DNA from: a phage
Assembly: GCA_024683775.1 (NCBI GenBank)
Contig: GCA_024683775.1_4106.1
Reading direction: 5' to 3' (one strand)
DNA: 64,000 bases
The notes under the pieces were generated by a model. The model did no database searches, was not told where the DNA came from, and saw nothing but the letters and a program-made list of their open reading frames with translations. A program made the translations under genes and the position numbers. Below are positions 6,654-51,880 of this stretch, in pieces (the stretch's first letter is position 1; each line of letters starts with the position of its first letter).

Positions 6654-7082
6654 ATGAATATCGAACAAACTATCCGTAACCACTCTTTCTTCGCTGCTGA
6701 AACTGGTCGTGTAATCGAGAGCGTCAAAATTGAAGAACTGATGATTAACGTTAAATATAAAGAACTGAATGATGAGATTAGCAGCACCATTTGTGCACTA
6801 CGTGCTCCATTCCGTTCTGAAGCAGCTAAGAAACCTGCCTATGTACTGGCGATTGCATTGGGTTGTGTAGTGAAATTGGTCGTTGATGAAAATCAACTAA
6901 ATATCAAAGTTGCTCCAACCAACGATGAAGAAAACATCGACCTGAACTTTGAAGGTAATCTGGCTGAAGACGTATTCTTCCAACAATCACTGGTTTATGA
7001 TTTCCGTACCGTAACTCATGACCATATCAACTTTGTCAATGAGATGGTTGACATTGTAGCTGAATACGAAGCTTCCCTATAA
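6654..7082 (+). CDS. FQxS-signature family protein
   Basis: 142 aa; motif AEDVFFQQSLVYDF near the C-terminus. Confidence 0.6.
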   Translation: MNIEQTIRNHSFFAAETGRVIESVKIEELMINVKYKELNDEISSTICALRAPFRSEAAKKPAYVLAIALGCVVKLVVDENQLNIKVAPTNDEENIDLNFEGNLAEDVFFQQSLVYDFRTVTHDHINFVNEMVDIVAEYEASL

Positions 7083-7095
7083 TTAGATTAACAAA

Positions 7096-7121
7096 AGCCT
7101 CCGTAATGGGGGCTTTTTCCA
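7096..7121 (+). terminator. rho-independent terminator
   Basis: agcctccgtaatgggggct hairpin followed by TTTTT. Confidence 0.5.
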
Positions 7122-7138
7122 ACATAAGGATATGAATA

Positions 7139-7690
7139 ATGATTGACCAAATTAAAATCCTAACTGAACAAATCACTGATTTTCTAGCAGATAAAGATGG
7201 ATTCAGTACTGAAGTTAAAATGCATGGTGTTAGTCTCGATGTAACTGCACCAAATGGTGAAACAACCAATTATGATATGTATGAAATCCTACTTTATACA
7301 TTGGCTGTTCGTAAACTTGGTAGTGATATTGAACTGAACATTAACAAAACCGAGAACGGTGACCAAGTGTTTGCAATCAACACTGGTGCACAAATGGACG
7401 TAGTAGCTGAAATCAACAAGATCAACCAATCTTTTGTGGGTTTCAAGCATGATACAATCCAATCTGTGTTCCTGGGTAAACAAACCGGAAACAGCCACTG
7501 TCCTTATTGTGTAATGACAACCTATAAAAATGGTAACTGGATGCGTCAGGATCTAGTACTTGCAGAAATGCTTTATGCAATCACTCACGGCCTAGAACTT
7601 GAACTTGATGATAGTGTTTACTGTTTCAAGAAAATCCGTAAACTTTCTGGTGATATACAAGCTCAATTAAAAGAATTAAATGATAAATAA
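7139..7690 (+). CDS. hypothetical protein
   Basis: 183 aa ORF. Confidence 0.6.
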   Translation: MIDQIKILTEQITDFLADKDGFSTEVKMHGVSLDVTAPNGETTNYDMYEILLYTLAVRKLGSDIELNINKTENGDQVFAINTGAQMDVVAEINKINQSFVGFKHDTIQSVFLGKQTGNSHCPYCVMTTYKNGNWMRQDLVLAEMLYAITHGLELELDDSVYCFKKIRKLSGDIQAQLKELNDK

Positions 7691-7801
7691 TTATACCAGT
7701 AATGGTTAACATTATCATGTTACTTTCCTCCCTTACATAATAATGATGCGTTATTATTTTATTGTATTATTCCCCTTTTTTGTACAAAATCTTTTTCGTA
7801 C

Positions 7802-7826
7802 TGCCCCGACCTTCGGGGCATTTTTC
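7802..7826 (+). terminator. rho-independent terminator
   Basis: tgccccg-acctt-cggggca hairpin followed by TTTTT. Confidence 0.55.
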
Positions 7827-7847
7827 TTGTCTAAATTTTGAGGTTCT

Positions 7848-8243
7848 ATGAATAATACTATTGGTAGTACAATATCTAAACCACTCTCTTATTACCTTGA
7901 AAAATTCAGAAGTACAAATGGTAAAAAATTTAATGGTATATACCAATTCTCACATAAAGAATATATCACAGTTGATTGTTATTCAAATAAACTTATGTAC
8001 GTAGATGATACTGAATACTGTATGAAATTGTCATTGGATGTAGAATTAGATAAGTTAACATTTATTGAATATACATCCAAAAGAACATCATTTCTTGGGA
8101 AATGTAATCGAAAAGTATATAAAAATATTTCAATGTACTTAAATGAAGATTACCACTTCCAACAAACAACGATTGAAGATGTTCTATTCAGTACTGAAGA
8201 ATTGAAAGAACTGTATCACTGGTATAAGCAATTCACATCTTGA
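7848..8243 (+). CDS. FQxS-signature family protein
   Basis: 131 aa; motif EDYHFQQTTIEDV. Confidence 0.6.
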   Translation: MNNTIGSTISKPLSYYLEKFRSTNGKKFNGIYQFSHKEYITVDCYSNKLMYVDDTEYCMKLSLDVELDKLTFIEYTSKRTSFLGKCNRKVYKNISMYLNEDYHFQQTTIEDVLFSTEELKELYHWYKQFTS

Positions 8244-8298
8244 CATTATCGTGGGTTTATCCTACAATGTAAGATAATGATACATAGAGGATAAATTT

Positions 8299-8709
8299 AT
8301 GAGTTTAGATTTACACAATGAACTAAAATATTATTTCGATTTGGATATATCACATTTGAACCAACACGTCAATTATATGACTAGTACTATGTGGTGGTCT
8401 GATGAGTTTGATGAACCAAAAATCCAACTTTGTGGTGATTTGTCTGTTTTGAGGTTGTATGCCCTTGATTCGGAAATGAATATCAAGATCACATACATCC
8501 CATACACAAACAAACTTATTGTAAACACCCTAAACCCAGTTACCGTATTGAAAATTTCTGATTTGGACACGATACAGTCAGATGAATCACTATTCCAACG
8601 TTCTTTGATTGATGATATGGGTGGTATTTTATATGAAGATATTGTACAATTGAAGAAGATGTATAGTGAATTGTTAGAAATTAAAAACACAGTAATTGTG
8701 GGGAGTTGA
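8299..8709 (+). CDS. FQxS-signature family protein
   Basis: 136 aa; motif DESLFQRSLIDD. Confidence 0.6.
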   Translation: MSLDLHNELKYYFDLDISHLNQHVNYMTSTMWWSDEFDEPKIQLCGDLSVLRLYALDSEMNIKITYIPYTNKLIVNTLNPVTVLKISDLDTIQSDESLFQRSLIDDMGGILYEDIVQLKKMYSELLEIKNTVIVGS

Positions 8710-9115
8710 TATGGTAAGTTTACTTGATATTGATAATACCAGTCTAGTACTGGTAAAAAAAGGTGTAATTCCCAATTCTACAAAAATTGATTATGCAGTT
8801 ATTGAAACAAATATTGGAAATATCTGGTATGACTCCGAAAGGGATATTGTGATTAGCTGCGTAGACAGTGACCGTGCTGAGTGTTGTAGGGTTGGTCATG
8901 ACGGGCAATTTATTTTCGAATTCCGTTACTGGAAAGATGCTAAATTCCATCATGAGCATGTTTCAATTACAGGTGTGTATTGCACCGAAGAATCGTTCTT
9001 CATGGATAGTACTGTTAATGATTTTGGTTCAGTTACATTTGAGTACTATAAAAAAGTATACAACGTATCCAGAGAAGTAATGCGAATCATCAGAAATGCT
9101 GAGGGTCAAGATTAA
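8696..9115 (+). CDS. FQxS-signature family protein (FMDS variant)
   Basis: 139 aa; motif EESFFMDSTVND. Confidence 0.55.
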   Translation: MWGVDMVSLLDIDNTSLVLVKKGVIPNSTKIDYAVIETNIGNIWYDSERDIVISCVDSDRAECCRVGHDGQFIFEFRYWKDAKFHHEHVSITGVYCTEESFFMDSTVNDFGSVTFEYYKKVYNVSREVMRIIRNAEGQD

Positions 9116-9491
9116 CATGACTACTATATATGACATTTTAGGTGACTTGAATAAAAATATAGATAATGATTTTGTTATTGTTCAAGATACTAGAAATTTA
9201 TTTCAACTACCAATAGGTTCACCAGATAGGTTAATTTTTAATAGATACGCAAAAACACTGACATACCTACACGATGGTATGGTTATATTGGTACTTGATA
9301 TTAAAGAAAATACAATACGATATGCATATGACTTCAAAGATTATTGGTCAAGAACCCATAGTATTGATATTGAGGAAGAGGAACTATTCCAATTGTCATT
9401 GATTGAGGAAAATGTAATAGGAATTACAGAAATTGATATTGTTAAAAAAGCATTAGACTATACAAATATAAAAATTAATGGTGAGCTATGA
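9096..9491 (+). CDS. FQxS-signature family protein
   Basis: 131 aa; motif EEELFQLSLIEE. Confidence 0.6.
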   Translation: MLRVKINMTTIYDILGDLNKNIDNDFVIVQDTRNLFQLPIGSPDRLIFNRYAKTLTYLHDGMVILVLDIKENTIRYAYDFKDYWSRTHSIDIEEEELFQLSLIEENVIGITEIDIVKKALDYTNIKINGEL

Positions 9492-9943
9492 TGGAAATTG
9501 ATGAAATAAAAAATCATTTTGAAATTGCATTGTCTTGTAAATTTGATGGCTCTTATGTTCCTGATCCAGAAGAGATAATTAGAATTTCCACATCGTTTTC
9601 GGAAGAGTACAATGTTCTTATTGAGAAAACATATGACAGTACGGAACTCGCATTTTACAATAAGAATTCACGAACAACAACATTTATATTATTATATAAC
9701 ACAACATCGGATTTAATAGAAATTATAACATGTAAAACAATCAAAGATGTACATTATGAGACTATATCAAATGTGAGTTATTGTTCAACTGAAGAAGGAT
9801 ACTTTCAGGAATCTCTTGTTAAAAATTTAACAGTTAGTTATTCTGATTTAAGCACTATAATCAATTGTGTTGAAAAGCTAAATGATTTCGTTCTATCTAT
9901 GTTTGATATCACAGAGCAAAACCCGAAGGTAATCAAATGCTAA
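9488..9943 (+). CDS. FQxS-signature family protein
   Basis: 151 aa; motif EEGYFQESLVKN. Confidence 0.6.
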   Translation: MMEIDEIKNHFEIALSCKFDGSYVPDPEEIIRISTSFSEEYNVLIEKTYDSTELAFYNKNSRTTTFILLYNTTSDLIEIITCKTIKDVHYETISNVSYCSTEEGYFQESLVKNLTVSYSDLSTIINCVEKLNDFVLSMFDITEQNPKVIKC

Positions 9944-10392
9944 ATCCAGGACAGTTTTTCCATTTACTTAGTATTACACCTATACCGGATTTAATCAGTG
10001 AAGCGAATCAATATCGTGATATAGGAATTGTATCTATGGAATACGATTCACCTGACTTTAAATGTTACGTAACATATGATTTGGTAGCCTATGAGTCAGA
10101 AACTGAGATAAAAAAACCATCATACATTTTTGTGTTCATATATAATGATTATAGTGGTGATCTACTCAATGATGTTCATATTGACACATTTGAAATATGT
10201 GATAATATTATAACAGATGATTCATCATGTACATTTGATTTATCAGAAAACAGTACTGAAGAGGCACTTTTTCAGTTGAGTACTGTTAGTGACACTGTAC
10301 TAACTCTTGATGACATTGAGAAATTTAAAGAACAGCTTGACGCAGTACGTGAGATGTTCTATAATCATTATCCAGAAATCGAGTTCAAATAA
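9937..10392 (+). CDS. FQxS-signature family protein
   Basis: 151 aa; motif EEALFQLSTVSD. Confidence 0.6.
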   Translation: MLNPGQFFHLLSITPIPDLISEANQYRDIGIVSMEYDSPDFKCYVTYDLVAYESETEIKKPSYIFVFIYNDYSGDLLNDVHIDTFEICDNIITDDSSCTFDLSENSTEEALFQLSTVSDTVLTLDDIEKFKEQLDAVREMFYNHYPEIEFK

Positions 10393-10406
10393 CTAAAGGT
10401 ATCAAA

Positions 10407-10667
10407 ATGACTAAAGTAGTTCGTAAACGCCACATGATGAACATGGATGAATTTCGCACCTTTGACAAATACCGTACTATGTTTCGTATGCTGTCACAGG
10501 GCCGTCCAATCGTCATTGTAACGGAGAATTACATGTCACCTGAGATGATGTTCGGTAATTATGAAAAGGTCTTCATGTTGTACGTGAAGCGTGAATTGCT
10601 AACGATTAAGACCTTAGCTGAAGCTACAGATGAAGATATGGATGGTGATAATACATTTACCATGTGA
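10407..10667 (+). CDS. hypothetical protein
   Basis: 86 aa ORF. Confidence 0.5.
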   Translation: MTKVVRKRHMMNMDEFRTFDKYRTMFRMLSQGRPIVIVTENYMSPEMMFGNYEKVFMLYVKRELLTIKTLAEATDEDMDGDNTFTM

Positions 10668-10745
10668 GGAAATATATGGCAGAAAAACCAAAAGAACCAT
10701 TGGACCGTGATGATGATTTTTACGACGAACGATATGGGGAATCAG

Positions 10746-10997
10746 ATGAGTGAACATCGTGCAGTACTTAAAAAGATTTTAAATGAACTTGGTGATGAGT
10801 TTAATGTTACTGAAGAAGAATATCAATGTTGGAAGAAGGATTTTGAACTCCTTGCTGAGTATGATAAAGTCTTCAATATGATTGGTGTCATTAGCCAGTA
10901 CTTACTTGGTGGTGGTCGAGCCAGTGCTTCAATTCTTGCATCTGCGATCATCTGTACTTCTCGATGGTGCGATGAAAAAAGTCTGGAAGATTTCTAA
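10746..10997 (+). CDS. hypothetical protein (start moved to an internal ATG with SD)
   Basis: ORF frame 10707-10997; gggga SD sits 6 nt before the ATG at 10746. Confidence 0.5.
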   Translation: MSEHRAVLKKILNELGDEFNVTEEEYQCWKKDFELLAEYDKVFNMIGVISQYLLGGGRASASILASAIICTSRWCDEKSLEDF

Positions 10998-11049
10998 ATA
11001 AGATGCTATAATGTATTATAGTACCTTAACAATATAAAAAGGATTTTAT

Positions 11050-11910
11050 ATGAAACCTATCAGAGTACTGTCACTTTTTAATGGAATGAGCGTTGGATAT
11101 ATGGCATTGGCAGATGCAGGTATTCCAGTTGAAAAATATTACTCATCTGAAATTGACAAGTACGCAATTGCTGAATCTTCCGAGAATTTTCCTGATATTA
11201 TCCAGTTAGGTGATGTGACTAAGTGGAAAGAATGGGATATTGAGTGGGATAAGATAGATTTACTCATGGGAGGATTCCCATGTCAAGCCTGGTCTGTTGC
11301 TGGTAAGCAAGGTGGCTTGAATGATATACGTGGACAGTTATTTTTGGTTATGGTTGATATTTTTGAGCACATCAAAAGTGTAAATCCAAACTTGCAATTT
11401 CTGTTCGAGAATGTTAAAATGAAGGAAGATTTCAAAGAATACATTAATAGTATTTTAGGAATCACACCAGTACTGATAAATTCCCAGCATTATACGCCTC
11501 ACTTCAGGCAGAGATACTACTGGTGCAGTACTGATAAGCTTTTTATACCACCTGCATTATCAAATGCCCCTAAACTTCAAGATATCATTGAAGATGGTTG
11601 GTATACTGACAGAACCGCTTCGTACTGTATAGATGCTAACTATTTTAAGGGTGGTGATTGTAACCAGTACTTTAATAAATCAAGACGACAGTTGGTGTTT
11701 CGTGACCCAACGATTAATCGTCAATATCTATTGGAGAATGGTAAAAGAAATATTGACTATAGACACTTAAGTGTAGTAGAATGTTGTAAATTACAGGGTA
11801 TTCCTGTAGATTTCTTTAAAGTGTCTAGTAAGACACAAGCATACAAAATGCTTGGGAATGGATGGACTATGCCAGTTATATCACACTTACTAAGAGAGAT
11901 ATTCTTTTGA
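11050..11910 (+). CDS. DNA (cytosine-5)-methyltransferase, apparently orphan
   Basis: 286 aa; m5C motifs LFNGMSVGYMAL (I), GGFPCQAWS (IV), ENV (VI), GNGWTMPV (X); no restriction endonuclease partner recognised nearby. Confidence 0.85.
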   Translation: MKPIRVLSLFNGMSVGYMALADAGIPVEKYYSSEIDKYAIAESSENFPDIIQLGDVTKWKEWDIEWDKIDLLMGGFPCQAWSVAGKQGGLNDIRGQLFLVMVDIFEHIKSVNPNLQFLFENVKMKEDFKEYINSILGITPVLINSQHYTPHFRQRYYWCSTDKLFIPPALSNAPKLQDIIEDGWYTDRTASYCIDANYFKGGDCNQYFNKSRRQLVFRDPTINRQYLLENGKRNIDYRHLSVVECCKLQGIPVDFFKVSSKTQAYKMLGNGWTMPVISHLLREIFF

Positions 11911-11912
11911 AC

Positions 11913-12392
11913 ATGAAGAACTACCCCACCTATACTGAACGTGTAATGAAATTTCAACGTCAGTCATCAAAGGAAGAATTAGAATTTAATTTGTACTATC
12001 CTAATATTGGTGATGAGGTATTCTATTGTTCTCATACAAAGAATGGAACTTTACTTAAATCTGGTAAAGGTATTATTGTTGATATGATTAGCACTTTCAA
12101 AGGTAAACTTAATGTAATGTACAAAGTACAAGATTCAAGTACTGAGTGCATTCATGAAGTGATGCATAATATACCTGCATATCCAAAGGATTTTGTTGAG
12201 CTAATATCTCGAAGGGAGAAACCTATGTTTTATTGTGGTTATGACAAACTAACCAAACAAATTATTCCTAATACTATGGGAAAATTTAAAAGTGATGTTA
12301 AAACTGAACTTAATAAGAAATTAGGTTCATCATGGGAAACTGAAAACGAATTCATCGAAATTCGTTTGATTGAAGTTACTATACTCGATTAA
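11913..12392 (+). CDS. hypothetical protein
   Basis: ORF frame 11862-12392; first ATG after the methyltransferase stop is 11913. Confidence 0.5.
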   Translation: MKNYPTYTERVMKFQRQSSKEELEFNLYYPNIGDEVFYCSHTKNGTLLKSGKGIIVDMISTFKGKLNVMYKVQDSSTECIHEVMHNIPAYPKDFVELISRREKPMFYCGYDKLTKQIIPNTMGKFKSDVKTELNKKLGSSWETENEFIEIRLIEVTILD

Positions 12393-12397
12393 TTACA

Positions 12398-12421
12398 GAT
12401 CCACGCTATGCGTGGATTTTT
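12398..12421 (+). terminator. rho-independent terminator
   Basis: atccacgc-tat-gcgtggat perfect 8-bp stem followed by TTTTT. Confidence 0.55.
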
Positions 12422-12434
12422 CATAGGTGCATAT

Positions 12435-12950
12435 ATGACAGTTCCTTATGTTAAAATTATTAATAATATCCTTGATTCGTGGGAAGATGTTATTACTGGT
12501 AAAAAGAACCCAATGCCAGTACACGCACTAACCGGAAGACTACAATTCAGAACGTCAAACAAAACTGAAACTTTTAATAATCATGATGTTCACATTACTA
12601 TAAAATCACCTGTACGTATTGTAATTAAAAAAAATCAAGATGATGAATTGACATTATCTATTGGTAGTGATAAAATCATTTTGAGTAATTTATCCGAAGA
12701 AGAATTCTTTCAACGTAGTACTATCATCGATATGAAAGATTTCACATATGAATCATTGGTTGAACTCAATACACGTTTCAACGATATTCAGGAACGATTG
12801 CGACCAATCCTCGGTAAAGAAGAGGAAGCCTGGAATGAAAGTGTGAGAAAGATGCAAGAAATGTTGAAAGAAAATATTAACAATCTGGGTAAAGCTACAA
12901 TGGAATTTGGTAAATCTTTTAAACTGAACTTTTCAAAGGATCGTAAATGA
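12435..12950 (+). CDS. FQxS-signature family protein
   Basis: start set at the ATG after the terminator hairpin (SD aggtg); motif EEEFFQRSTIID. Confidence 0.55.
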   Translation: MTVPYVKIINNILDSWEDVITGKKNPMPVHALTGRLQFRTSNKTETFNNHDVHITIKSPVRIVIKKNQDDELTLSIGSDKIILSNLSEEEFFQRSTIIDMKDFTYESLVELNTRFNDIQERLRPILGKEEEAWNESVRKMQEMLKENINNLGKATMEFGKSFKLNFSKDRK

Positions 12951-13402
12951 AAATTGATAATTTGATTCATGTCTTAGGGACTTTACATAAAATATTATCT
13001 CATGTAGATGAGATAAAGAAACTGGGACTTAACATCTCAAATTCAATTGAAACTACATTTAAATATCAATCAATTACTGGTGATGGTTATTACATAATCG
13101 AATATACTTATGAAACCGATCCAGACTTCTATCCTCTTACGTTGAGAATTTATCCAACAAATCCGAGAGGAATTCACGACATATCATCAATTTCACTTGA
13201 TCCAGATGGTGAAACGAGTATTGAATACAATAATGATTCAAAACCAGAATTTTACATTGATGATATTAAAAAGTTGTTCAATGATGAATATGTTTTCCAA
13301 CAAAGTACTGTGCATGATGTTGGTAGTACTACTGGGCAATTTTGGAATACATGTTATTATCATATGATTGAAATTTGTAAATTACTAAAAGGTGTTGAAT
13401 AA
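12947..13402 (+). CDS. FQxS-signature family protein
   Basis: 151 aa; motif DEYVFQQSTVHD. Confidence 0.6.
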   Translation: MKIDNLIHVLGTLHKILSHVDEIKKLGLNISNSIETTFKYQSITGDGYYIIEYTYETDPDFYPLTLRIYPTNPRGIHDISSISLDPDGETSIEYNNDSKPEFYIDDIKKLFNDEYVFQQSTVHDVGSTTGQFWNTCYYHMIEICKLLKGVE

Positions 13403-13785
13403 TGAAATACTGCATTGAAGTACATTACACTACAGGTGATACTGAAAATTGTTATGACGTTCTTAATACAATTGATATTCAATGGTCTTCTAAAGAGGAA
13501 GCAGTTGCTGCTTTACAGTGCCTAAAAGAGCATTGGGTGTTTTATATGAAGCAAGATAATTGCTATACAAAAGAACACGAAACGATCATGGAAAATGCTA
13601 AACAAAAAGAGTGGTTTGACCCAATATCACCAGAATATTCATTCTTAGTTAAAGTTGGTGATGTGACAGTTCCATTACGAACACCGTGGAACGGCTACTT
13701 TGAAACTCTTCATAATGCACGAGTTGTCGCTGTTGATAACCCTGAACAAATCGATTTCGATTCATTGGACTGGAAAAAACTATGA
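13402..13785 (+). CDS. hypothetical protein
   Basis: 127 aa ORF. Confidence 0.55.
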   Translation: MKYCIEVHYTTGDTENCYDVLNTIDIQWSSKEEAVAALQCLKEHWVFYMKQDNCYTKEHETIMENAKQKEWFDPISPEYSFLVKVGDVTVPLRTPWNGYFETLHNARVVAVDNPEQIDFDSLDWKKL

Positions 13786-14225
13786 CAGTACTGCACCGAT
13801 TGAAGAAGGTTAAGCATCCAGTTGTATATGAGGACTGGAAACGACAGAAGTTGCTGGGTGATTTTTATTACCCAAAATCTAAAGTTCTTGCGAATTCAAG
13901 ATGTACATATTGCACACATAATGATAAAGATACAGTATTTGTCGAAATGGGTTTCCATCCATCAAACACAATGTTCACTACTAACCAAACGTTTTACAAA
14001 TTTCATATACAAAAAGATTCATTTACTGTTATGATTATAAAACATTTAGTTGAAGATCTGGCATTCAGTGAAGAACGAGTACCTTTATCATTAGTGGATA
14101 TTCCTTATAATAATTTAGAGGAAATGTACTTCCAACAGTTGACAGTACAAGAAAACTTTGGTATGATAGGACTTCAAGAGTTAGAGATGATTAAGCAAAT
14201 TCGTGATATCTACTTTAAGGAGTAA
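13782..14225 (+). CDS. FQxS-signature family protein
   Basis: 147 aa; motif EEMYFQQLTVQE. Confidence 0.6.
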   Translation: MTVLHRLKKVKHPVVYEDWKRQKLLGDFYYPKSKVLANSRCTYCTHNDKDTVFVEMGFHPSNTMFTTNQTFYKFHIQKDSFTVMIIKHLVEDLAFSEERVPLSLVDIPYNNLEEMYFQQLTVQENFGMIGLQELEMIKQIRDIYFKE

Positions 14226-14227
14226 CT

Positions 14228-14371
14228 ATGCCAGTACGTAACAGTACTTCACGCTTTACGCTTCAACAGAAAGCAGATCTTTTGAATATGGCAAACAAAG
14301 ATTCTAATTTTCACTATCTAGTACTCGGTGGTTCAGTTGAAAAGATTGACCTACGTGAGTGTATGAAATAA
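14228..14371 (+). CDS. possible mini-protein (47 aa)
   Basis: my translation MPVRNSTSRFTLQQKADLLNMANKD...; fills an intergenic gap; below ORF-track cutoff. Confidence 0.3.
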   Translation: MPVRNSTSRFTLQQKADLLNMANKDSNFHYLVLGGSVEKIDLRECMK

Positions 14372-14387
14372 CAAAAAGGGGACTAAA

Positions 14388-14558
14388 ATGAGTCTACGTG
14401 AATCATGGGAACAATTTAAAGAAGAGATTGGTTATCGTGGTGTCAAAATCGAACCAATCAATCGCACCGAAAGCATCAAAGCTAGTACTAATGGCACTAC
14501 CTATGATCGTTATGATGAAAAGTATGGTTTACATTCTAAACCAAAGGATACTGAGTAA
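14388..14558 (+). CDS. possible mini-protein (56 aa)
   Basis: strong SD aaaagggga; MSLRESWEQFKEEIGYRGVKIEP... Confidence 0.4.
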   Translation: MSLRESWEQFKEEIGYRGVKIEPINRTESIKASTNGTTYDRYDEKYGLHSKPKDTE

Positions 14559-18619: not shown

Positions 18620-19012
18620 ATGACTGAATCTGAACTACGTGAAATGATAGATTTCATTTATGAAATGGTGCAAGATAAAAATAACATCAATACAATTATT
18701 TCTGGTCCAAGACAAATTGGTAACCAAATGACATATTCTTTATCTTTGTGGATAAACCAGAACTACAAAGTTGATTGTTTGTATTTTCGTCCTGATATTG
18801 ATGCTTATTATTTTGTAAATCATGATGCATTAATGAAACCAAATAAGCGTCCAGTTGATGATGCCTTTGTGACGCACCCATTTTATCTGGCTGATTCCGA
18901 AGAAGATGAGTTTCAAAAGAACACAACGTTAAGCCCAGGTGAAATTTGCATCCCTTACACACTAAAAGATAAAATGATTTACATCACAGAAGTTATGAAA
19001 ACATGCTGGTAA
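18620..19012 (+). CDS. hypothetical protein (weak FQ-family match)
   Basis: 130 aa; motif EEDEFQKNTTLS. Confidence 0.55.
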   Translation: MTESELREMIDFIYEMVQDKNNINTIISGPRQIGNQMTYSLSLWINQNYKVDCLYFRPDIDAYYFVNHDALMKPNKRPVDDAFVTHPFYLADSEEDEFQKNTTLSPGEICIPYTLKDKMIYITEVMKTCW

Positions 19013-19280: not shown

Positions 19281-19769
19281 ATGCCAATTCGTGGTGTCCC
19301 AGAACCATTAACTGAAGTTATTAAGCATGTTCGCATTGGAGATCGAGAAGTTAATCTGCGACGTGGTAATATATATTACTTTAAAACTTCAGATATGAGT
19401 TCTGTGCAGATTGTCATTGGTACATCTATTATGATTACTCGCGTACTTGATGGTAGTACTGACTTCGTTGGGTACAATGTACTTACTAATAAAGTAACAC
19501 ATACATATAAATGGAGTGGATATAAAACTATTAAGTATGAATTTGACTTAGCTAGAACTGAAGAAGAACGATTTATGCTGAGTACTATCAATCCAGCAAA
19601 CTATCCAGATCTTGATGCATTTTTGCTAATTTTAAAATTGTATAATGAAGCAAATCAGAAAGCTAAAGAGTATGATAGAATCATGTATGAACGCCGAAAA
19701 GAACGTGCACAAAAAAGTTATGATCTGTATGATAGCCCATACGTGAAATATAGTAAGGGGTCGAAATGA
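19281..19769 (+). CDS. FQxS-signature family protein (FMLS variant)
   Basis: motif EEERFMLSTINP; SD aaggag. Confidence 0.55.
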   Translation: MPIRGVPEPLTEVIKHVRIGDREVNLRRGNIYYFKTSDMSSVQIVIGTSIMITRVLDGSTDFVGYNVLTNKVTHTYKWSGYKTIKYEFDLARTEEERFMLSTINPANYPDLDAFLLILKLYNEANQKAKEYDRIMYERRKERAQKSYDLYDSPYVKYSKGSK

Positions 19770-20170
19770 ATAAAGAAGTTCAAATTATCATAACTCCACC
19801 TATACAAAGTCTGGATGTATCCATTAGTGATTTTTTGGAAAAATACTATGAATGGTTTAATGAAGATTCAGTAATTTATAACCATTCATTACCTGATGGT
19901 TTCGTTGAGCTTATTGAATTAAATGCCAAATCACTATACTTCTGTGTTGAATACAATGATTATATGACAGATGAAGCATATCGTTTTCGTTGTACATTGT
20001 ATCCTAACCATTTTTCCATTGGTTATAAAGACTATCAGTACTGCACCACAAACTATAGTGTAGAGGAAGAATTTCAGTACAATTTACTTTATCCTGATTT
20101 AGATTATACGATTGCAGTACTGTTGACTAAAATCATGGATTTTTATAAAGATAAATATAATGCATCCTAA
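19766..20170 (+). CDS. hypothetical protein (weak FQ-family match)
   Basis: 134 aa; motif EEEFQYNLLYPD. Confidence 0.5.
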   Translation: MNKEVQIIITPPIQSLDVSISDFLEKYYEWFNEDSVIYNHSLPDGFVELIELNAKSLYFCVEYNDYMTDEAYRFRCTLYPNHFSIGYKDYQYCTTNYSVEEEFQYNLLYPDLDYTIAVLLTKIMDFYKDKYNAS

Positions 20171-22171: not shown

Positions 22172-22763
<592 letters not shown>

Positions 22764-22767
<4 letters not shown>

Positions 22768-23155: not shown

Positions 23156-23533
<378 letters not shown>

Positions 23534-24127: not shown

Positions 24128-24258
<131 letters not shown>

Positions 24259-24261
24259 AAT

Positions 24262-24351
24262 CGGTCCCGTTGCCTAGCGTCCGAAGGCAGCCGACTCATA
24301 ATCGGTCACAGTTAATGACACACCACTGGTTAGAATCCAGTCGGGACCACC
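24262..24351 (+). tRNA. tRNA, anticodon CAT (Met or lysidine-Ile), unusually long variable region
   Basis: acceptor ggtcccg/cgggacc, anticodon arm gccga-ctCATaa-tcggt, T-arm actgg-TTAGAAT-ccagt, CCA. Confidence 0.5.
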
Positions 24352-24354
24352 AAT

Positions 24355-24428
24355 TAGACTCTGTAGTTCAGTTGGTAGAACGCTTCACTCATAATGAAGA
24401 AGTCGCTGGTTCAATCCCAGTACTGACC
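24355..24428 (+). tRNA. tRNA-like, anticodon CAT; acceptor stem does not pair (possible pseudo-tRNA)
   Basis: canonical D-arm ta-gttc-agttggta-gaac, anticodon arm cttca-ctCATaa-tgaag, T-arm gctgg-TTCAATC-ccagt; 5' gactctg versus 3' actgacc are non-complementary. Confidence 0.35.
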
Positions 24429-24438
24429 ACAAAAAAAA

Positions 24439-26136
<1,698 letters not shown>

Positions 26137-26254
26137 AATATTCTCCTGAATTTTCTAAAAGTTATAATAATATTTAGTTACAATATTTATGATATAGATT
26201 AAAAAGTTGAAATGTGTTCAAAAAATGTGGTATAATACCTCTGTTGTTCACGGA

Positions 26255-26484
<230 letters not shown>

Positions 26485-26493
26485 TCAAAATTC

Positions 26494-26575
<82 letters not shown>

Positions 26576-26584
26576 TAAAACAAA

Positions 26585-26668
26585 TGGTAGTTAGCATATC
26601 GGCCTTATGCAACGGACTGTTAATCCGTGTCAGAAATGACAAGACTGGTTCGACTCCAGTACTACCAG
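26585..26668 (+). tRNA. tRNA-Asn (anticodon GTT), extended variable region
   Basis: acceptor tggtagt/actacca, D-arm gcat...atgc, anticodon arm acgga-ctGTTaa-tccgt, T-arm actgg-TTCGACT-ccagt. Confidence 0.55.
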
Positions 26669-26733
26669 CAAAACAATCATGAACCTCGGAACAATAAATA
26701 ATATCATACAGGATATTATGAGGTCTAAGGTTC

Positions 26734-27276
26734 ATGGGACGAAAACAATCAGAAGAAACACGTAAAAAAATAGCTGAATCATTAAAGGCTAAAAGTTCTA
26801 AATTACCAGAGAATGAAATAATTCAAAAATATTTAAATGGTATGCCAATTTACGGTTTAGCCAAAGAATATAAGTGTAATAGATCAAGAATAAATGATAT
26901 CGTTGAATCACATGGTGTTAAACGACCAAAATCAACCAATGAAATGCGATTTTGTGAAATACACAATAAGAATTATGAATTAAATTCACAAGGTAAATGG
27001 AAATGTTTAAAATGTGACAGTCAACGTGTTTCTGATAGACGTAGAAAATTAAAAATACTAGCCGTTGAATACAAAGGCGGTTGTTGTGAAAAGTGTGGAT
27101 ATGATAAATGCATTGCCGCATTAGAATTCCATCATGTTGATCCTTCACAGAAAGATTATTCAATTAGTCAAGAAGGTGCAACTCGTTCTTTTGAAAAAAT
27201 TAAAATAGAACTGGATAAATGTATTATGGTTTGTGCAAATTGTCATCGTGAGATTCATGATGATGAACGACAATAA
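26734..27276 (+). CDS. HNH homing endonuclease with NUMOD3-like N-terminus
   Basis: 180 aa; KQSEETRKKIAESL; CEKCGY...HHVDP...CANCHREIH zinc-finger HNH. Confidence 0.8.
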   Translation: MGRKQSEETRKKIAESLKAKSSKLPENEIIQKYLNGMPIYGLAKEYKCNRSRINDIVESHGVKRPKSTNEMRFCEIHNKNYELNSQGKWKCLKCDSQRVSDRRRKLKILAVEYKGGCCEKCGYDKCIAALEFHHVDPSQKDYSISQEGATRSFEKIKIELDKCIMVCANCHREIHDDERQ

Positions 27277-27279
27277 TTT

Positions 27280-27549
<270 letters not shown>

Positions 27550-27557
27550 GAATTTAA

Positions 27558-27959: not shown

Positions 27960-27968
27960 CGGGTATTA

Positions 27969-28236
<268 letters not shown>

Positions 28237-28281
28237 GATTCCCGATTCAGTAGCTTATAAAGCAGTTCCGTGTGTGCCTAT

Positions 28282-28334
<53 letters not shown>

Positions 28335-28335
28335 T

Positions 28336-28373
<38 letters not shown>

Positions 28374-28392
28374 AGAGGTACTTCGAGTATGC

Positions 28393-28501
<109 letters not shown>

Positions 28502-28520
28502 AAATCTTAGTAAGAAAATA

Positions 28521-28602
<82 letters not shown>

Positions 28603-31209: not shown

Positions 31210-31617
31210 ATGAATAAAATTTTAAGTGATAATGAGGTTGATATTGTCATTGATGTGCTTGAAAACAGTAATACATTTGAGAAGAAACACAGTACTGTAT
31301 ACTTCGGTAAAGATTGCTGGTTGAGCTATATATCTGATAATTCGTTTGTAATTCGTGTTGAAACGGGTGATATTGGATTTACGGTACATGCGGCACATAC
31401 CAAAACTGATAAACAAATCACTGTTATTGCTGACACGCCAAGTATCTGGGATAGAATTGATGATTGTGAACACTACACGTCAACATTCTATGATACAGAA
31501 GAAGAACATTTCATGGATAGTACGGTCAAAGAATTAACTATTCCATTTAAACTTATGAAAGCAGCAAGAGATTTTATTTTAAAATACAAAAAAATAGGAG
31601 TTGATGATGCAATTTAA
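31210..31617 (+). CDS. FQxS-signature family protein (FMDS variant)
   Basis: ORF frame 31168-31617; SD gaggaag before the ATG at 31210; motif EEEHFMDSTVKE. Confidence 0.55.
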   Translation: MNKILSDNEVDIVIDVLENSNTFEKKHSTVYFGKDCWLSYISDNSFVIRVETGDIGFTVHAAHTKTDKQITVIADTPSIWDRIDDCEHYTSTFYDTEEEHFMDSTVKELTIPFKLMKAARDFILKYKKIGVDDAI

Positions 31618-40145: not shown

Positions 40146-41111
40146 GTGAAAAAGCTTGATTTAAATGCAATTTCTGAAGAAGTACTGGATGAGTGTTTTG
40201 CTAGTGAAGAAGTCAACGTATTAGAGGCTCTTGATTCCGTCGAAGAAGAAGAACATGACGGTCACAAGTTTGAGAAACCAAAAACAGGTATCAGCTTAAC
40301 TCGCCCTAAAGGGATAACGAATGAAATGCTCATCCAAGCAGTGCGTGATGGTATTGACGTTGAAAAGAACATTGACCTTTTGGTTCGCTACAACTATCCA
40401 ATGGTAGTAAGTGTTGCACGTAAGTGTACATGTTTTATCCCATTTGAAGATAAGATTTCTTATGGTGTTGAAGGTTTAATGCGAGCAATTCATACGTTCG
40501 ACACTACCAAAAATGTTAAGTTCATTACATATGCAACAACAACTGTGTACATGACAATCTATAACGAAAGTGCAGATGCTAATTATCTAGTGCATTTCCC
40601 ACGTTATATGAGTGTTAATAACATTTATGTGAAACGTTGTGTAGAAGAGTATCAAAGGAAACATGGTAAATACCCAACTCCTGAGATGGTGTCAAAAGAG
40701 ACTGGTATTGAGATTCAACACGTTAAGAATTGTCTAACTTACAGTAACACTTATGTAGCATTGAATATGAAAATGAGTAATGATTCAGAAAGTACATTAT
40801 CTGACATTGTTACTTCAGTTGAACCTGATTACAACTTAGGCGTAGAAACTGTCAGTACCCCACTGGTACAAAGTATTGCAGAAATGATGAGTAACCTATC
40901 TGCCAAAGACCGTGAATTGATTGAACGTGTACATGGTATTGGTTCTTATTCTGAACCCGAAACGCTACGAGAAATCATTGAGAGTGGTTTTGAAGATGAG
41001 AAGGGTAAGGTCATGACTGCTCGTTCTTCATTGCACCGTAAGTACTCTGAAGCAATGGAACGACTGCGTAAGATGGTTAAGACAAAAGGTTATGAGTTCG
41101 AAGATTTTTAA
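40146..41111 (+). CDS. sigma-70 family RNA polymerase sigma factor (phage-encoded)
   Basis: 321 aa, GTG start with SD aggag; region-2-like NYPMVVSVARK...GVEGLMRAIHTFD...KFITYATTTVYMTI; region-4-like HTH ...LREIIESGFEDEKGKVMTARSSLHRKYSEAMERLRK. Confidence 0.7.
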   Translation: MKKLDLNAISEEVLDECFASEEVNVLEALDSVEEEEHDGHKFEKPKTGISLTRPKGITNEMLIQAVRDGIDVEKNIDLLVRYNYPMVVSVARKCTCFIPFEDKISYGVEGLMRAIHTFDTTKNVKFITYATTTVYMTIYNESADANYLVHFPRYMSVNNIYVKRCVEEYQRKHGKYPTPEMVSKETGIEIQHVKNCLTYSNTYVALNMKMSNDSESTLSDIVTSVEPDYNLGVETVSTPLVQSIAEMMSNLSAKDRELIERVHGIGSYSEPETLREIIESGFEDEKGKVMTARSSLHRKYSEAMERLRKMVKTKGYEFEDF

Positions 41112-45193: not shown

Positions 45194-45394
45194 ATGTTTA
45201 CTTTATATCTCGCAGTAGTTCTCACCAATGGTGAAATCACTCGTACTATTGGTGAAGGTGTATATAAAACACCAGACCAGTGCTACTCTGCTACTCATTG
45301 GCCTCGCGATAGTGGGGATGAAACTCGCACTGAATTCAAATGCATGAAAGTAAAAGGTGATTTTGTTAACCTTAAGGTTATCGAGGCGAAATAA
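45194..45394 (+). CDS. hypothetical secreted protein
   Basis: ORF frame 45137-45394; hydrophobic N-terminus. Confidence 0.45.
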   Translation: MFTLYLAVVLTNGEITRTIGEGVYKTPDQCYSATHWPRDSGDETRTEFKCMKVKGDFVNLKVIEAK

Positions 45395-45909
45395 TGGATA
45401 TTAATGAGTTGTTGATCTTATTGTTTAATCGTGGAAATGATGTAAGACGTTCTGAATATCAAGACAAAATTCACATTGAAACTGATAAATGTTATGGTAA
45501 AACAACTCATGAGATTTTGAAGCCAAATGGCAAACGATATGCCGATGTATGTTTTCATGAACGAAGTGATGGTAGTGAAATAATCAGTACTGAAATTGTG
45601 TTTTATGATAGATCCTCGGCAGGTTCGTATGAAATAGAACTTATATATTGCCCTGGTTCAGAAACACACAATAAACGTCAGATATTATATGATGTTTATT
45701 CACCTCCAGGTGTAGCTGAATATTTTGTTATTGATTACAGTACTGAAGAAAGTGTGTTTCAACAGAGCTTGATTCATAACTTCCAGTTGAATGATCCAAA
45801 TGTACCAAAGTTGTTCAAACTACTCGATACTATCGATGTTGATTTTGAATTTGTTATGTGCATTAGAACTTCCTTGATCGATGAATTTATGGAACTACTT
45901 AATATATGA
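45394..45909 (+). CDS. FQxS-signature family protein
   Basis: 171 aa; motif EESVFQQSLIHN. Confidence 0.6.
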   Translation: MDINELLILLFNRGNDVRRSEYQDKIHIETDKCYGKTTHEILKPNGKRYADVCFHERSDGSEIISTEIVFYDRSSAGSYEIELIYCPGSETHNKRQILYDVYSPPGVAEYFVIDYSTEESVFQQSLIHNFQLNDPNVPKLFKLLDTIDVDFEFVMCIRTSLIDEFMELLNI

Positions 45910-47871: not shown

Positions 47872-47949
47872 CGTTCAAAAAGTCTCTAATAGTATTAAAT
47901 ACTTCTGTACAAATAATATGTGCAGAAGTATTGCTCGTTAGAGGTTATA

Positions 47950-48315
47950 ATGAAAAAATATATAAGAATGATAATGGTGTTTGTAGTATTCATGCTTTAT
48001 TCAAGGTTCAGTACAGCCGTACCTGCTTACCTTGATTGTATGGGAAACGATGGAACATGGCATGTACTTTCTAATGACCCACAAAATGGAAACAATATTG
48101 TCGTAGATAATGAGGTTTACCGTTTCAGGGCCGAGAGTTTGATTGGGAATAAAAAGGTATCGACATATAAATCAGATGCTGGTATAATAGCAAATGTAAT
48201 ATTGATAGTGGACCCCAAGACAAAGGATGGGGATATTTACATAGTCATTTATCAAGATTCGTCGAACAAACGCGATCAGGATATTGATAAATTGAATATT
48301 CATTGTGAACTTTAA
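47950..48315 (+). CDS. hypothetical secreted protein
   Basis: ORF frame 47920-48315; signal-peptide-like N-terminus. Confidence 0.5.
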   Translation: MKKYIRMIMVFVVFMLYSRFSTAVPAYLDCMGNDGTWHVLSNDPQNGNNIVVDNEVYRFRAESLIGNKKVSTYKSDAGIIANVILIVDPKTKDGDIYIVIYQDSSNKRDQDIDKLNIHCEL

Positions 48316-48325
48316 GGTATAACAA

Positions 48326-48709
48326 ATGATCAACGATGTAATGCTTTATGTATTAATTACTCCGATTCTTATTAACTCAGTAATAACTATTTCAATGGCA
48401 TTATTTGGTATAGTAGCAATTGTTTATGCGGTTAGTACTGGAAAGTATACTTTAATTAGTAAGGTTGATTCATGGTTCGCATCTGATAGTGTACCATATT
48501 CAGCTAGTATGATTACGATTGGTATTCTAATCGTTGCATTTACACTGCACTGTATTGGTTTTATTAATACAAGTATTTTTTCAGTTTTTATTGGTCTATC
48601 ATTATATCCATCACTTTGGTACTTGATTTATGTAATCGATGTTTGGTATAATAACTACAAGCAGTACAAAGTGAAGAAATCCATTTTATCCAAAGGAAAC
48701 AAATCATGA
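48326..48709 (+). CDS. hypothetical multi-pass membrane protein
   Basis: 127 aa ORF. Confidence 0.55.
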   Translation: MINDVMLYVLITPILINSVITISMALFGIVAIVYAVSTGKYTLISKVDSWFASDSVPYSASMITIGILIVAFTLHCIGFINTSIFSVFIGLSLYPSLWYLIYVIDVWYNNYKQYKVKKSILSKGNKS

Positions 48710-49056
48710 AAGTAATTTTGTTTTTTGTTTGTATGATTATATGTGGTATGTCTTATGCAGAACCATTACCTGGACTAGTCTGTACTGAAGGTGATATTAA
48801 ACACATTTACCAAGGTGATAGCGATGACCATACTATCGTTTATATCGATGGTGAAGTGTATAATTTTGTTAAAGAACATACTGTAGGTGACATTAGTTTT
48901 ACGCAGTACTCGAATGATACTGATCCCAATATGCTTGCATTTCTTCAAGTTGATGTATATGAAGAAAGTAATGGCGAACAGTATGTTAAACTTGTGATGA
49001 TGCGTAAGGCAGCAAAACAGGCAACATTCGGTGGCTTGTGTAAATATGAGGACTAA
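48706..49056 (+). CDS. hypothetical secreted protein
   Basis: 116 aa; signal-like N-terminus; shares a D-x-V-Y-x-F motif with 47950 and 53301. Confidence 0.5.
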   Translation: MKVILFFVCMIICGMSYAEPLPGLVCTEGDIKHIYQGDSDDHTIVYIDGEVYNFVKEHTVGDISFTQYSNDTDPNMLAFLQVDVYEESNGEQYVKLVMMRKAAKQATFGGLCKYED

Positions 49057-50099: not shown

Positions 50100-50366
50100 A
50101 TGAAGCTTAAATTACAATACAATGGTTTTACTTTGCGTAACGACACTGAGTTTGTCAATCGTTCACCAGGTGCCGAGTTGTTTTTGCGAGAGATGAACAT
50201 TCCTTTCGTCATCACTACTGTTGGTGACCGTGAAGTGCTACAATACGCAGAGCATCCAGTTATTGATGTTCCGTGGTATTCTGAGCATATGTATATGGAT
50301 ATGGCCCGTCGCTACGACTGTAAGTTCGTAGTTGAAGGTGATAAAATTACAGTCCAATTCAAATAA
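50100..50366 (+). CDS. hypothetical protein
   Basis: 88 aa; SD agagga. Confidence 0.5.
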   Translation: MKLKLQYNGFTLRNDTEFVNRSPGAELFLREMNIPFVITTVGDREVLQYAEHPVIDVPWYSEHMYMDMARRYDCKFVVEGDKITVQFK

Positions 50367-50377
50367 GGTAACTTAAA

Positions 50378-50671
50378 ATGATCAGTACTTCAGTAAATGC
50401 AAGCATCGTGGCAGACGTAGAAATGGTTAAAGAATGTACAGACGAAACCCTTCGCAACATGTACATCAATGATTTGATTTCAGAGTACGGAAGTCGTGGT
50501 GTTCATGAGTTTGTTCGCCTAAGCGGTGAATTGATGAAGAATCGCATTCGTATGAAGCTTAATGTGCATCCAAAAGCATGGGCGTTTACAATGAAGTACG
50601 CTGAAGATATTGTTGAATTGCGTCGCAATGATGTGTATAATCGTTTACACAATGGTACATTAAAGGACTAA
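50378..50671 (+). CDS. hypothetical protein
   Basis: 97 aa ORF. Confidence 0.5.
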   Translation: MISTSVNASIVADVEMVKECTDETLRNMYINDLISEYGSRGVHEFVRLSGELMKNRIRMKLNVHPKAWAFTMKYAEDIVELRRNDVYNRLHNGTLKD

Positions 50672-50676
50672 ATTAT

Positions 50677-50705
50677 AGGAATCCGTAAAAGGATTCCTGT
50701 TCTTG
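50677..50705 (+). terminator. rho-independent terminator
   Basis: aggaatcc-gtaaaa-ggattcct hairpin followed by a T-rich tract. Confidence 0.5.
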
Positions 50706-50721
50706 TTTATAAGGTAATAAA

Positions 50722-50946
50722 ATGAAATATCTAGTACTAGTACTGCTATTCTTGAGTACTGTTGTATGTGCTAAACCAAAGTATCATGTAGTGTGTATCA
50801 ACGAGATGGAAGGGTATACTGAAACATATAAGAACCATATTGTTGAAGTTGCAGCCCAAGGTTCCTATGGGACCATCATCTTCCTTAAGAACAATGTGAT
50901 TGTTCAGTACAAAAAAGATTCAAATTGTAAAGTGACTAAAAATTGA
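50722..50946 (+). CDS. hypothetical small secreted protein
   Basis: 74 aa, signal-like N-terminus. Confidence 0.5.
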   Translation: MKYLVLVLLFLSTVVCAKPKYHVVCINEMEGYTETYKNHIVEVAAQGSYGTIIFLKNNVIVQYKKDSNCKVTKN

Positions 50947-51016
50947 TCTAGATCAATTTTTCAGATATTCTCTGTAAATAATAGCAGTACAGAACATTAT
51001 TTTACGGAGGTGTAAT

Positions 51017-51253
51017 ATGGAAACTATAATCATCATATGTGCGTTGTTTGCATTTTTGGTAATGTGGTCACCAACATTCATTGCATATAAAATGAAAAAT
51101 AAAAATGCAGAAGCAATTATGTACGTAAACTTATGTTGCATACTAACTTATGGAATACTTTTATTCTTTACTGAATTTACATTAATCCCAGTAGTAGTTT
51201 GTTCATCAATGTTTATTTGGTTGTTTCTGCTTTATGAATCTATTAAAAAATAA
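51017..51253 (+). CDS. hypothetical small membrane protein
   Basis: 78 aa ORF. Confidence 0.5.
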   Translation: METIIIICALFAFLVMWSPTFIAYKMKNKNAEAIMYVNLCCILTYGILLFFTEFTLIPVVVCSSMFIWLFLLYESIKK

Positions 51254-51307
51254 AAGATATAGGGTTGGTAATATGCCATCCCTTTTACTTTATGTGGGGT
51301 TTAATTA

Positions 51308-51880
51308 ATGAATAGAAAAGGTAAGTTTAAAGTATCAAAGAAGAACAAAAGTTCTAGATTTAGACCTATAACTTTAACTTTTAAGGCTAAAGAAGAATTA
51401 ACTGCACTTAGTAAAAAGATAATTTCATCTAAGATTAAAGTATCATACGTAAATTCGGTAAAATTTCAGAAGGTTAAACCACAAGACAAACTCATTTCAC
51501 TTATATTTAAACGTAATGATTTTGAGATATTAGTAGATGATTATAGAGCCTATAATGCTGGATTCATTCATGTCACTTGTAATACCGAACTAACTGAGTT
51601 GGAACATTTGACATGTATCATAAGTGTAGATAACGGTGTGGTGAAGTACAATTTTTTACATTTTACCAATATCAATAATGGAATGGGTGTACAATCCAGA
51701 CCTATAGTACCTACATGTGATGTAACTAATTTAGCAAAGCTCAATGAAGAAGAATATTTTCAAGAAAGCATTGTAACTGAGCATTTAGATGCTATAATAG
51801 CAACTTACAAAGAATGCATATGGGTTTTGAATGCGATAAAGCCCAAATTGTGTTTAATGAATGTCGTTCGTGATTTATAA
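51308..51880 (+). CDS. FQxS-signature family protein
   Basis: 190 aa; motif EEEYFQESIVTE. Confidence 0.6.
   Translation: MNRKGKFKVSKKNKSSRFRPITLTFKAKEELTALSKKIISSKIKVSYVNSVKFQKVKPQDKLISLIFKRNDFEILVDDYRAYNAGFIHVTCNTELTELEHLTCIISVDNGVVKYNFLHFTNINNGMGVQSRPIVPTCDVTNLAKLNEEEYFQESIVTEHLDAIIATYKECIWVLNAIKPKLCLMNVVRDL

Follow-up and report, generated by a model that had tools for sequence, protein, structure and literature searches.

An ancient and extremely diverged superfamily of small proteins sharing a 13-residue C-terminal motif in RaK2-like jumbo phages

The 64,000-nucleotide stretch of phage DNA analysed here (contig GCA_024683775.1_4106.1 of GenBank assembly GCA_024683775.1; hereafter the window) carries a family of 22 small open reading frames (ORFs) that share one short motif, [ST]-E-E-x-[YFL]-F-Q-x-S-[TL]-[VI]-x-D, toward their C-termini. 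Comparison of window positions 6000-14500 with related phages gave 99.4% identity to Escherichia phage WPEC5 and 82-88% identity to 121Q, PBECO4 and their kin; all 37 records matching this segment are jumbo phages of Escherichia or Salmonella, 310-386 kb in size and belonging to the genus Asteriusvirus. The window is DNA of an Asteriusvirus, a 121Q/PBECO4-like jumbo coliphage. The ORF listing and a motif scan placed all 22 family genes on the + strand. A regular expression of the motif matched 22 of the 205 + strand ORFs and none of the 158 ORFs on the - strand, against 0.25 ± 0.5 matches (maximum 3) among residue-shuffled + strand ORFs, which bears out the original prediction, made from the sequence, of at least 22 ORFs with a common motif. 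Their arrangement in tandem clusters, interleaved with transfer RNA (tRNA) and HNH genes, is also as it had been described: the window holds seven tRNAs at 21.6-28.9 kb and HNH genes at 23545, 26734, 53648 and 60597. In the annotated relatives fEgEco12 and 121Q, every family member is labelled 'hypothetical protein'.

The members, named here by the first nucleotide of each ORF, begin with 6654-7082 (142 residues; phrog_23322), which carries the motif EDVFFQQSLVYD at 6966-7001 and has an orthologue at 162304-162795 of Klebsiella phage RaK2 (genus Alcyoneusvirus). It is followed by 7848-8243 (131 residues; EDYHFQQTTIED at 8145-8180) and 8299-8709 (136 residues; DESLFQRSLIDD at 8581-8616), the latter again with a RaK2 orthologue. 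ORF 8696-9115 encodes 139 residues from a TTG codon, with EESFFMDSTVND at 8987-9022 and a RaK2 orthologue at 163820-164269. The first cluster is completed by 9096-9491 (131 residues; EEELFQLSLIEE at 9375-9410), 9488-9943 (151 residues; EEGYFQESLVKN at 9791-9826; P0036) and 9937-10392 (151 residues, net charge -23; EEALFQLSTVSD at 10258-10293). Farther along lie 12435-12950 (171 residues with a long C-terminal tail; EEEFFQRSTIID at 12696-12731), 12947-13402 (151 residues; DEYVFQQSTVHD at 13283-13318) and 13782-14225 (147 residues; EEMYFQQLTVQE at 14118-14153; RaK2 orthologue). Two divergent members, 18620-19012 (130 residues; EEDEFQKNTTLS at 18899-18934) and 19766-20170 (134 residues; VEEEFQYNLLYP at 20060-20095), flank the basic 19281-19769, whose 162 residues include a long C-terminal helix and the motif EEERFMLSTINP at 19560-19595. 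Next come 22402-22767 (121 residues; EEEYFQTSTVQE at 22663-22698), with a near-consensus sigma-70 promoter at 22343-22370, and 23156-23533 (125 residues; AEDEFQKSTVYE at 23417-23452). A further cluster comprises 28871-29296 (141 residues; EEKFFQYCLVND at 29171-29206), 29289-29648 (119 residues; EESLFQYSMIND at 29547-29582), 30343-30795 (150 residues; EDMYMQLNFVYD at 30673-30708), 30804-31208 (134 residues; EDMFFQLSTLYD at 31104-31139) and 31210-31617 (135 residues; EEEHFMDSTVKE at 31498-31533; RaK2 orthologue 182285-182692). The last two members are isolated: 45394-45909 (171 residues; EESVFQQSLIHN at 45745-45780) and the basic 51308-51880, which has 190 residues with a longer N-terminal part and the motif EEEYFQESIVTE at 51746-51781. 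Some of the originally proposed start codons may need a shift, from 8696 to 8711 (giving 134 residues; protein P0029 is among the evidence) and from 9096 to 9117 according to annotated homologues, and from 30343 to 30379 as suggested by one orthologue (P0030); those at 12435 (confirmed by P0031), 19281 and 31210 agree with the orthologues.

The proteins are 119-190 residues long, and the motif lies 22-44 residues from the C-terminus in 20 of them; the distance is 59 residues in 19281 and 74 residues in 12435, both of which have long tails. A profile hidden Markov model (HMM) built from the 22 found no additional member among the 363 window ORFs. When each member was left out of the model in turn, its C-terminal module, from the motif to the end of the protein, ranked first of 342 ORFs, with E values from 1e-10 to 0.1 and below 1e-3 for 19 of 22 (for instance 1.5e-5 for 7848); 18620 scored weakest at 0.11, yet still ranked first. 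The N-terminal parts of the members were not recognised at all by these models. BLASTP alignments among members likewise centre on the motif, and pairs aligning over about 100 residues are 28871/29289 (E 1e-12), 29289/8299 (96 residues, E 4e-5), 30343/30804 and 45394/9488.

The codons of the motif vary synonymously, with Phe encoded by 11 TTT and 10 TTC, Gln by 12 CAA and 7 CAG, and Ser by AGT, AGC, TCA or TCT, that is, by both the AGY and TCN codon families. All 22 members have syntenic orthologues in 121Q and in TH47, a related phage with an unannotated complete genome of 352 kb that is 96% identical to the window. In the pooled comparison of the 22 genes with their 121Q orthologues, the ratio of nonsynonymous (dN) to synonymous (dS) substitution rates was 0.104 for the 13-codon motif, 0.325 for the N-terminal part and 0.272 for the C-terminal tail, while dS was similar across the three segments (0.45-0.61); the comparison with TH47 gave the same pattern of motif versus rest. 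Given this synonymous variation and the low dN/dS of the motif under an unreduced dS, the constraint acts on the protein. Protein-level conservation had been proposed originally, and these data sustain it; the example offered for it, caa-agt-act-gt versus cag-tac-tgt, does not serve, being one DNA word, AGTACTGT, read in two frames. It arises because AGTACT is in excess across the whole window and is not a trait of the family. Compared with 121Q and TH47, the members have a median dN/dS of 0.28-0.29, less than 1 yet significantly above the 0.15-0.17 of neighbouring non-family genes (Mann-Whitney p = 1.4e-4 and 0.026), and they share 43% to 94% of their amino acids with the 121Q orthologues. 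All 22 ORFs are thus functional genes, retained as distinct orthologues.

The window contains only part of the family. We scanned TH47 with an HMM of the core motif and counted ORFs scoring above the best reversed-sequence decoy (6.9 bits), which yielded 68 copies, about one gene in ten, all on the strand equivalent to the + strand of the window. The original prediction of at least 22 members, correct for the window, had thus covered a third of the family in a complete related genome. Orthologues of the window members account for 22 of these copies; a second and denser cluster, equivalent to 43-83 kb past the right end of the window, holds about 40, and singles occur at other sites of the genome. 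In TH47 the motif is followed by 13-95 residues (typically 20-60) and starts 48-191 residues from the N-terminus, so that both short and long forms occur. RaK2 contains at least 46 members in 250 kb of its 346-kb genome; BLASTP found RaK2 orthologues for six window members, and some RaK2 members occupy syntenic positions and have recognisably orthologous motifs. A member of the RaK2 ORF003 type occurs in 52 phage records, among them the Salmonella phages Munch, SE_PL and PHA46 and an Erwinia phage. Searching 1.84 billion representative proteins with a profile of the C-terminal module returned 86 clusters (at 50% identity) with E <= 1e-3; in 84 of them the proteins have 62-217 residues with the module at the C-terminus, and the other two are repeat-protein false positives. 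All ten divergent cluster matches that were checked are unnamed metagenomic proteins, one of them encoded on an 84.6-kb contig with a RaK2-like gene order. A homologue search based on the full-length alignment found 28 close orthologues only.

The RaK2 orthologues and synteny, together with the wider search, therefore indicate that the family is old and confined, as far as detectable, to RaK2-like jumbo phages, and the 22 ORFs are part of one ancient, extremely diverged paralogous superfamily of these phages. Many tandem paralogues on one strand, the mark of a paralogue expansion, are found in the window (22), TH47 (68) and RaK2 (at least 46). Nearly 10% of the RaK2 gene products have been reported to be paralogues, with the families left undefined (PMC3622015), and our literature search found no description of this family or its motif. 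It resembles arrays, known from giant phages, in which small paralogous genes without a known function stand in tandem (PMC7824862; PMC3622015; PMC13282480). It differs from them in its higher copy number (68) and in a divergence of the copies that leaves no more than a 13-residue helix recognisable; being common to at least two genera with conserved synteny, it is also old and not the product of recent amplification.

Database searches agreed with the original reading, in which the motif was not recognised as a named domain. None of the 22 members, nor of ten members from the second TH47 cluster, matched Pfam at the gathering score; NCBIfam gave no match for the family, PADLOC a single match to one member (E 1e-3) and nothing usable, and a profile search of Protein Data Bank (PDB) sequences a best E value of 0.21. 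In PHROGs, 29 groups were matched, all of 'unknown function' (phrog_23322, 17453, 24941, 21500, 24510, 24027 and about 20 others). Most members have a PHROG of their own, which each matches at E 1e-35 to 1e-111, and the weak cross-matches centre on the motif. PHROGs thus splits the superfamily into about 29 unrelated-looking families, and the unifying motif and fold are unrecorded there.

Structure prediction, one of the checks proposed originally, was run for two divergent members, 6654 and 19281, with AlphaFold2 (AF2) on shallow alignments that included paralogues. The model of 6654 (50 sequences; predicted local distance difference test score (pLDDT) 84.9, predicted template modelling score (pTM) 0.79) has an N-terminal helix at residues 3-8, seven strands between residues 20 and 100, the motif helix at 105-114 (EDVFFQQSLV) and a C-terminal helix at 122-141. 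That of the basic 19281, which has the F-M variant of the motif (43 sequences; pLDDT 78.7, pTM 0.70), has an N-terminal helix at residues 10-14, seven strands between 26 and 89, the motif helix at 94-101 (EEERFMLS) and a C-terminal helix at 111-150. Both models show a common topology in a single compact domain: a short helix is followed by a beta meander of seven strands and then by two helices at the C-terminus, and the motif segment is predicted to be alpha-helical (block pLDDT about 74-89). Ser or Thr followed by acidic residues is the pattern expected at a capped helix N-terminus, and the logo of 52 TH47 members reads [ST]-E-E-x-[YLF]-F-Q-x-S-[TL]-[VI]-x-D. Aligned with one another, the C-terminal modules show another capped start, [ST]-[FY]-[ED]-[DE]-[IL], five to seven residues further on, and the module is therefore a helix-loop-helix. 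The secondary-structure order of both models, assigned by DSSP, matches the alpha-beta7-alpha-alpha order of the p32/gC1qBP/MAM33 fold (PDB 7te3); the Pfam search showed no sequence-profile similarity to PF02330, and no specific fold match was found for the family. The polo-box domain, a six-stranded sheet with a helix, was another fold considered.

In a crude check of hydrophobic periodicity, the N-terminal parts were of beta type and the C-terminal parts of alpha type in 21 of the 22 members (Wilcoxon p = 2e-5), and the N-terminal part measures 84-115 residues in 21 of 22. Alignment of shallow ortholog-group profiles by hhalign linked 8 of 231 pairs at a probability of at least 90%; full-length homology was found for two pairs only, 28871/29289 (hhalign 100%) and 30343/30804 (95.5%), and neither the leave-one-out HMMs nor hhalign connected the N-terminal parts of most pairs. 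As sequence homology of the N-terminal parts was not found for most pairs, a shared fold is suggested by the two AF2 models and the periodicity. The N-terminal parts, originally called unrelated, are so in sequence by both methods, but not in predicted structure. In our reading, each protein would be a single domain diverged past sequence recognition and not a module fused to unrelated domains. The proposal of a common module fused to diversified effector domains loses its footing here: the models place the motif as an integral helix of one domain, the N-terminal parts are uniform in length and match no known effector domain, and some pairs are homologous over their full length.

The surroundings of the family genes bear on their expression. 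The window contains 39 sigma-70 promoters that agree with the consensus at 11 or more of its 12 positions, all on the + strand, with none on the - strand and about three expected; 11 of the 39 are perfect TTGACA-N16-18-TATAAT. Examples on the + strand lie at 589, 14698, 16558, 20823, 20967 and 28462, and further ones at 35365, 42859, 43508, 47470 and 58833. A looser promoter scan of the window showed no excess. A phage sigma factor gene is located at 40146-41111. The whole window looks like an early region dependent on host RNA polymerase, and the equivalent region of the related phage CBB has been interpreted as an early, host-takeover region (PMC5259590). Lying among these dense consensus promoters, the family genes are probably transcribed early by the host enzyme. 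Their products are acidic, with a median isoelectric point (pI) of 4.6 and a median net charge of -11, and 17 of 22 (77%) have a pI below 5 versus 20% of the neighbours. In 121Q, the labels 'virion structural protein' in the family region go to non-members, and the virion proteins of RaK2 identified by mass spectrometry are encoded in two other genome clusters (PMC3622015). Labels of this kind in fEgEco12 are bioinformatic, not proteomic, and were not used as evidence.

These data enable us to propose a putative model, to which we assign a probability of roughly 0.55. Each member would be one small domain in which a short N-terminal helix precedes a beta meander of about seven antiparallel strands, with a helix-loop-helix at the C-terminus. 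The motif would form the first C-terminal helix, with a Ser/Thr N-cap, an acidic first turn and a hydrophobic face of F, T/L and V/I. As the most constrained part of the fold, this helix would act as its structural keystone, while the sheet and the last helix have presumably diverged past sequence recognition. The genes would be transcribed early by host RNA polymerase, and the products would be mostly acidic cytoplasmic proteins, not reported in the virion. The family may then constitute a repertoire of stable small binders, each with a variable sheet surface that engages its own target in the host or a competitor, in the service of host takeover or anti-defence. The most likely role, which we infer, is such an early diversified binding repertoire; the takeover or anti-defence role suggested originally remains plausible since the region looks early-expressed, though the fusion architecture from which it was derived finds no support. 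Ocr, Arn and ArdA are acidic early anti-restriction or DNA-mimic phage proteins. The family resembles them in being small, strongly acidic, situated in an early-looking region and not labelled as virion proteins, and differs in showing no sequence or fold match and in having four neutral or basic members among the 22.

Several points weigh against this model. The early timing is read from promoter consensus only. A dN/dS below 1 and stable orthology do not look like a fast arms race. The conserved polar Q and S exceed the need of simple packing and could mark a shared interaction site. Moreover, the common topology of the two AF2 models could be partly induced by the paralogue-containing alignments, and some N-terminal parts may have an independent origin, given that their homology is undetectable for most pairs.

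The foremost alternative is that the conserved C-terminal helix-loop-helix docks about 70 target-binding domains onto one shared machine, such as a host protease, RNA polymerase, a membrane complex or a phage hub; poxvirus ankyrin proteins, with their C-terminal F-box-like motif, would be a parallel. Conservation of the C-terminal module alone, both among paralogues and between genera, fits such an adaptor, as do the polar E-E, Q, S and D of the logo beyond the needs of hydrophobic packing and a purifying selection on the motif three-fold stronger than on the rest of the protein. Both AF2 models, however, place the motif helix in a confident compact domain and not in a free tail; besides, [ST]-E-E is consistent with ordinary helix N-capping, sequence conservation is lacking in the second helix of the module, and no candidate partner was identified. 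We regard the adaptor as possible but doubtful, and its fullest form, in which about 70 beta domains capture targets and the shared helix-loop-helix delivers them as a handle to a common machine, as rather unlikely; if true, an adaptor repertoire for a host AAA+ protease or a phage hub would be the bacterial-virus counterpart of the F-box/PRANC adaptors of eukaryotes and poxviruses. Little more probable than that fullest form is oligomerisation, by which pairing of the C-terminal helical hairpins would join the paralogues into homo- or hetero-oligomers, so that the family would work as a combinatorial assembly and not as independent proteins.

A shared processing site, also raised originally, appears improbable. 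On this view a protease would recognise the motif, whether as a TEV/3C-like site (E-x-x-Y-x-Q|S), as a T4-type prohead protease site (L/I-x-E|) or as a tag for degradation by the host, and so allow maturation or the timed removal of the proteins. TEV/3C-type proteases recognise E-x-x-Y-x-Q|(S/G), and the motif has a formal likeness to ENLYFQ|S, with E, the aromatic residue and Q at the same spacing in most members. Unlike the exposed and extended cleavage site, however, the motif segment is predicted to be helical within a folded domain, the residue after Q (P1') varies (Y, L, Q, E and others) with Ser one position further (P2'), Met takes the place of Gln in 4 of 52 members, and conservation extends past the motif into the second capped helix. 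No 3C-like protease was seen in the window annotations, nor is one annotated in the stretches of 121Q or RaK2 that were read, although no search was aimed at one. T4-type prohead-protease substrates, which are internal proteins targeted to the capsid, are present in the virion and carry the L/I-x-E site; here Leu precedes [ST]-E in only 13 of 52 TH47 members, and no member or homologue in 121Q is labelled a virion protein. Finally, the shared peptide might be a DNA-level or compositional artefact, produced by a repeated element such as AGTACT or by AT-rich codon usage. AGTACT does lie inside 8-9 of the 22 motifs, and Ser-Thr pairs in the + strand ORFs of the window use AGT-ACT at four times the frequency predicted from codon usage. 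But 13 of 22 motifs lack it, synonymous variation affects every conserved position and involves both Ser codon families, dS under the motif is not reduced, and the opposite strand and the shuffles gave 0 and 0.25 matches, respectively. Codon variation, dS and the strand and shuffle controls refute this origin, which we give next to no weight.

Viewed as one superfamily, about 70 separate 'hypothetical proteins' per genome, or about one gene in ten of the RaK2/121Q-like phages, become one tractable problem in a group of jumbo phages that includes candidates for phage therapy of E. coli, Klebsiella and Salmonella. The 13-residue signature, absent from Pfam, NCBIfam and PHROGs, provides a simple annotation handle. 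The binder repertoire, if true, would be among the largest known in a phage and a possible natural scaffold library.

The AGTACT excess is a DNA-level signal. This palindrome, the ScaI site, is found 171 times in the window, whereas dinucleotide shuffles predict 18.2 ± 4.1, an excess of about nine-fold. Its sites fall in each of the three codon phases and are equally dense outside ORFs. Ser-Thr pairs of the + strand ORFs are encoded by AGT-ACT in 68 of 129 cases, compared with 17.6 expected. Sites within family motifs include those at 9008, 10279, 12717, 13304, 19581, 22684, 29187 and 29563. TH47 has 917 copies genome-wide, with flanks preferring C and G to give CAGTACTG, and RaK2 and 121Q show the same excess; a literature search found no report of it. 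GGTACC, CGTACG and AGCGCT are absent from both the 352-kb TH47 genome and the window, where a rough base-composition estimate predicts about 30 copies of each in TH47, and this looks like restriction-site avoidance. In contrast to these absent palindromes, GGCC-containing hexamers are relatively enriched. A cytosine methyltransferase gene lies at 11050-11910 of the window, and one related record labels it HaeIII-like.

Other putative gene families accompany the one described here. Seven tandem + strand ORFs of 104-122 residues at 57149-58184 and 62486-63820, five of them with a common C-terminal motif such as L-R-[ND]-K-[IM]-P-[ED], appear to form a second family of paralogues encoding small multi-pass membrane proteins. 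Small + strand ORFs with hydrophobic, signal-peptide-like N-termini at 47920-48315, 48706-49056, 53271-53597, 55760-56011 and 56439-56852 have loosely similar cores (for example EVYRFRAE, EVYNFVKE and TTYNFKAI) and may be another paralogous family, of predicted exported proteins. In 121Q, at 117-131 kb and past the right end of the window, about 14 - strand genes carry the annotation RCC1-like 'regulator of chromosome condensation' or DNA-condensation protein; this array, another large paralogue expansion of these phages, has been noted previously (PMC5259590). The tRNA cluster at 24164-28854 differs from that of 121Q, and several of its tRNA calls by ARAGORN are unusually long (Ser-ACT 92 nt, Met 90 nt, Met 79 nt and Asn 85 nt). 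A - strand ORF of 565 residues (24439-26136) and an HNH-like ORF (26734-27276) lie between tRNA genes that are nearly adjacent in 121Q, which suggests mobile gene insertions.

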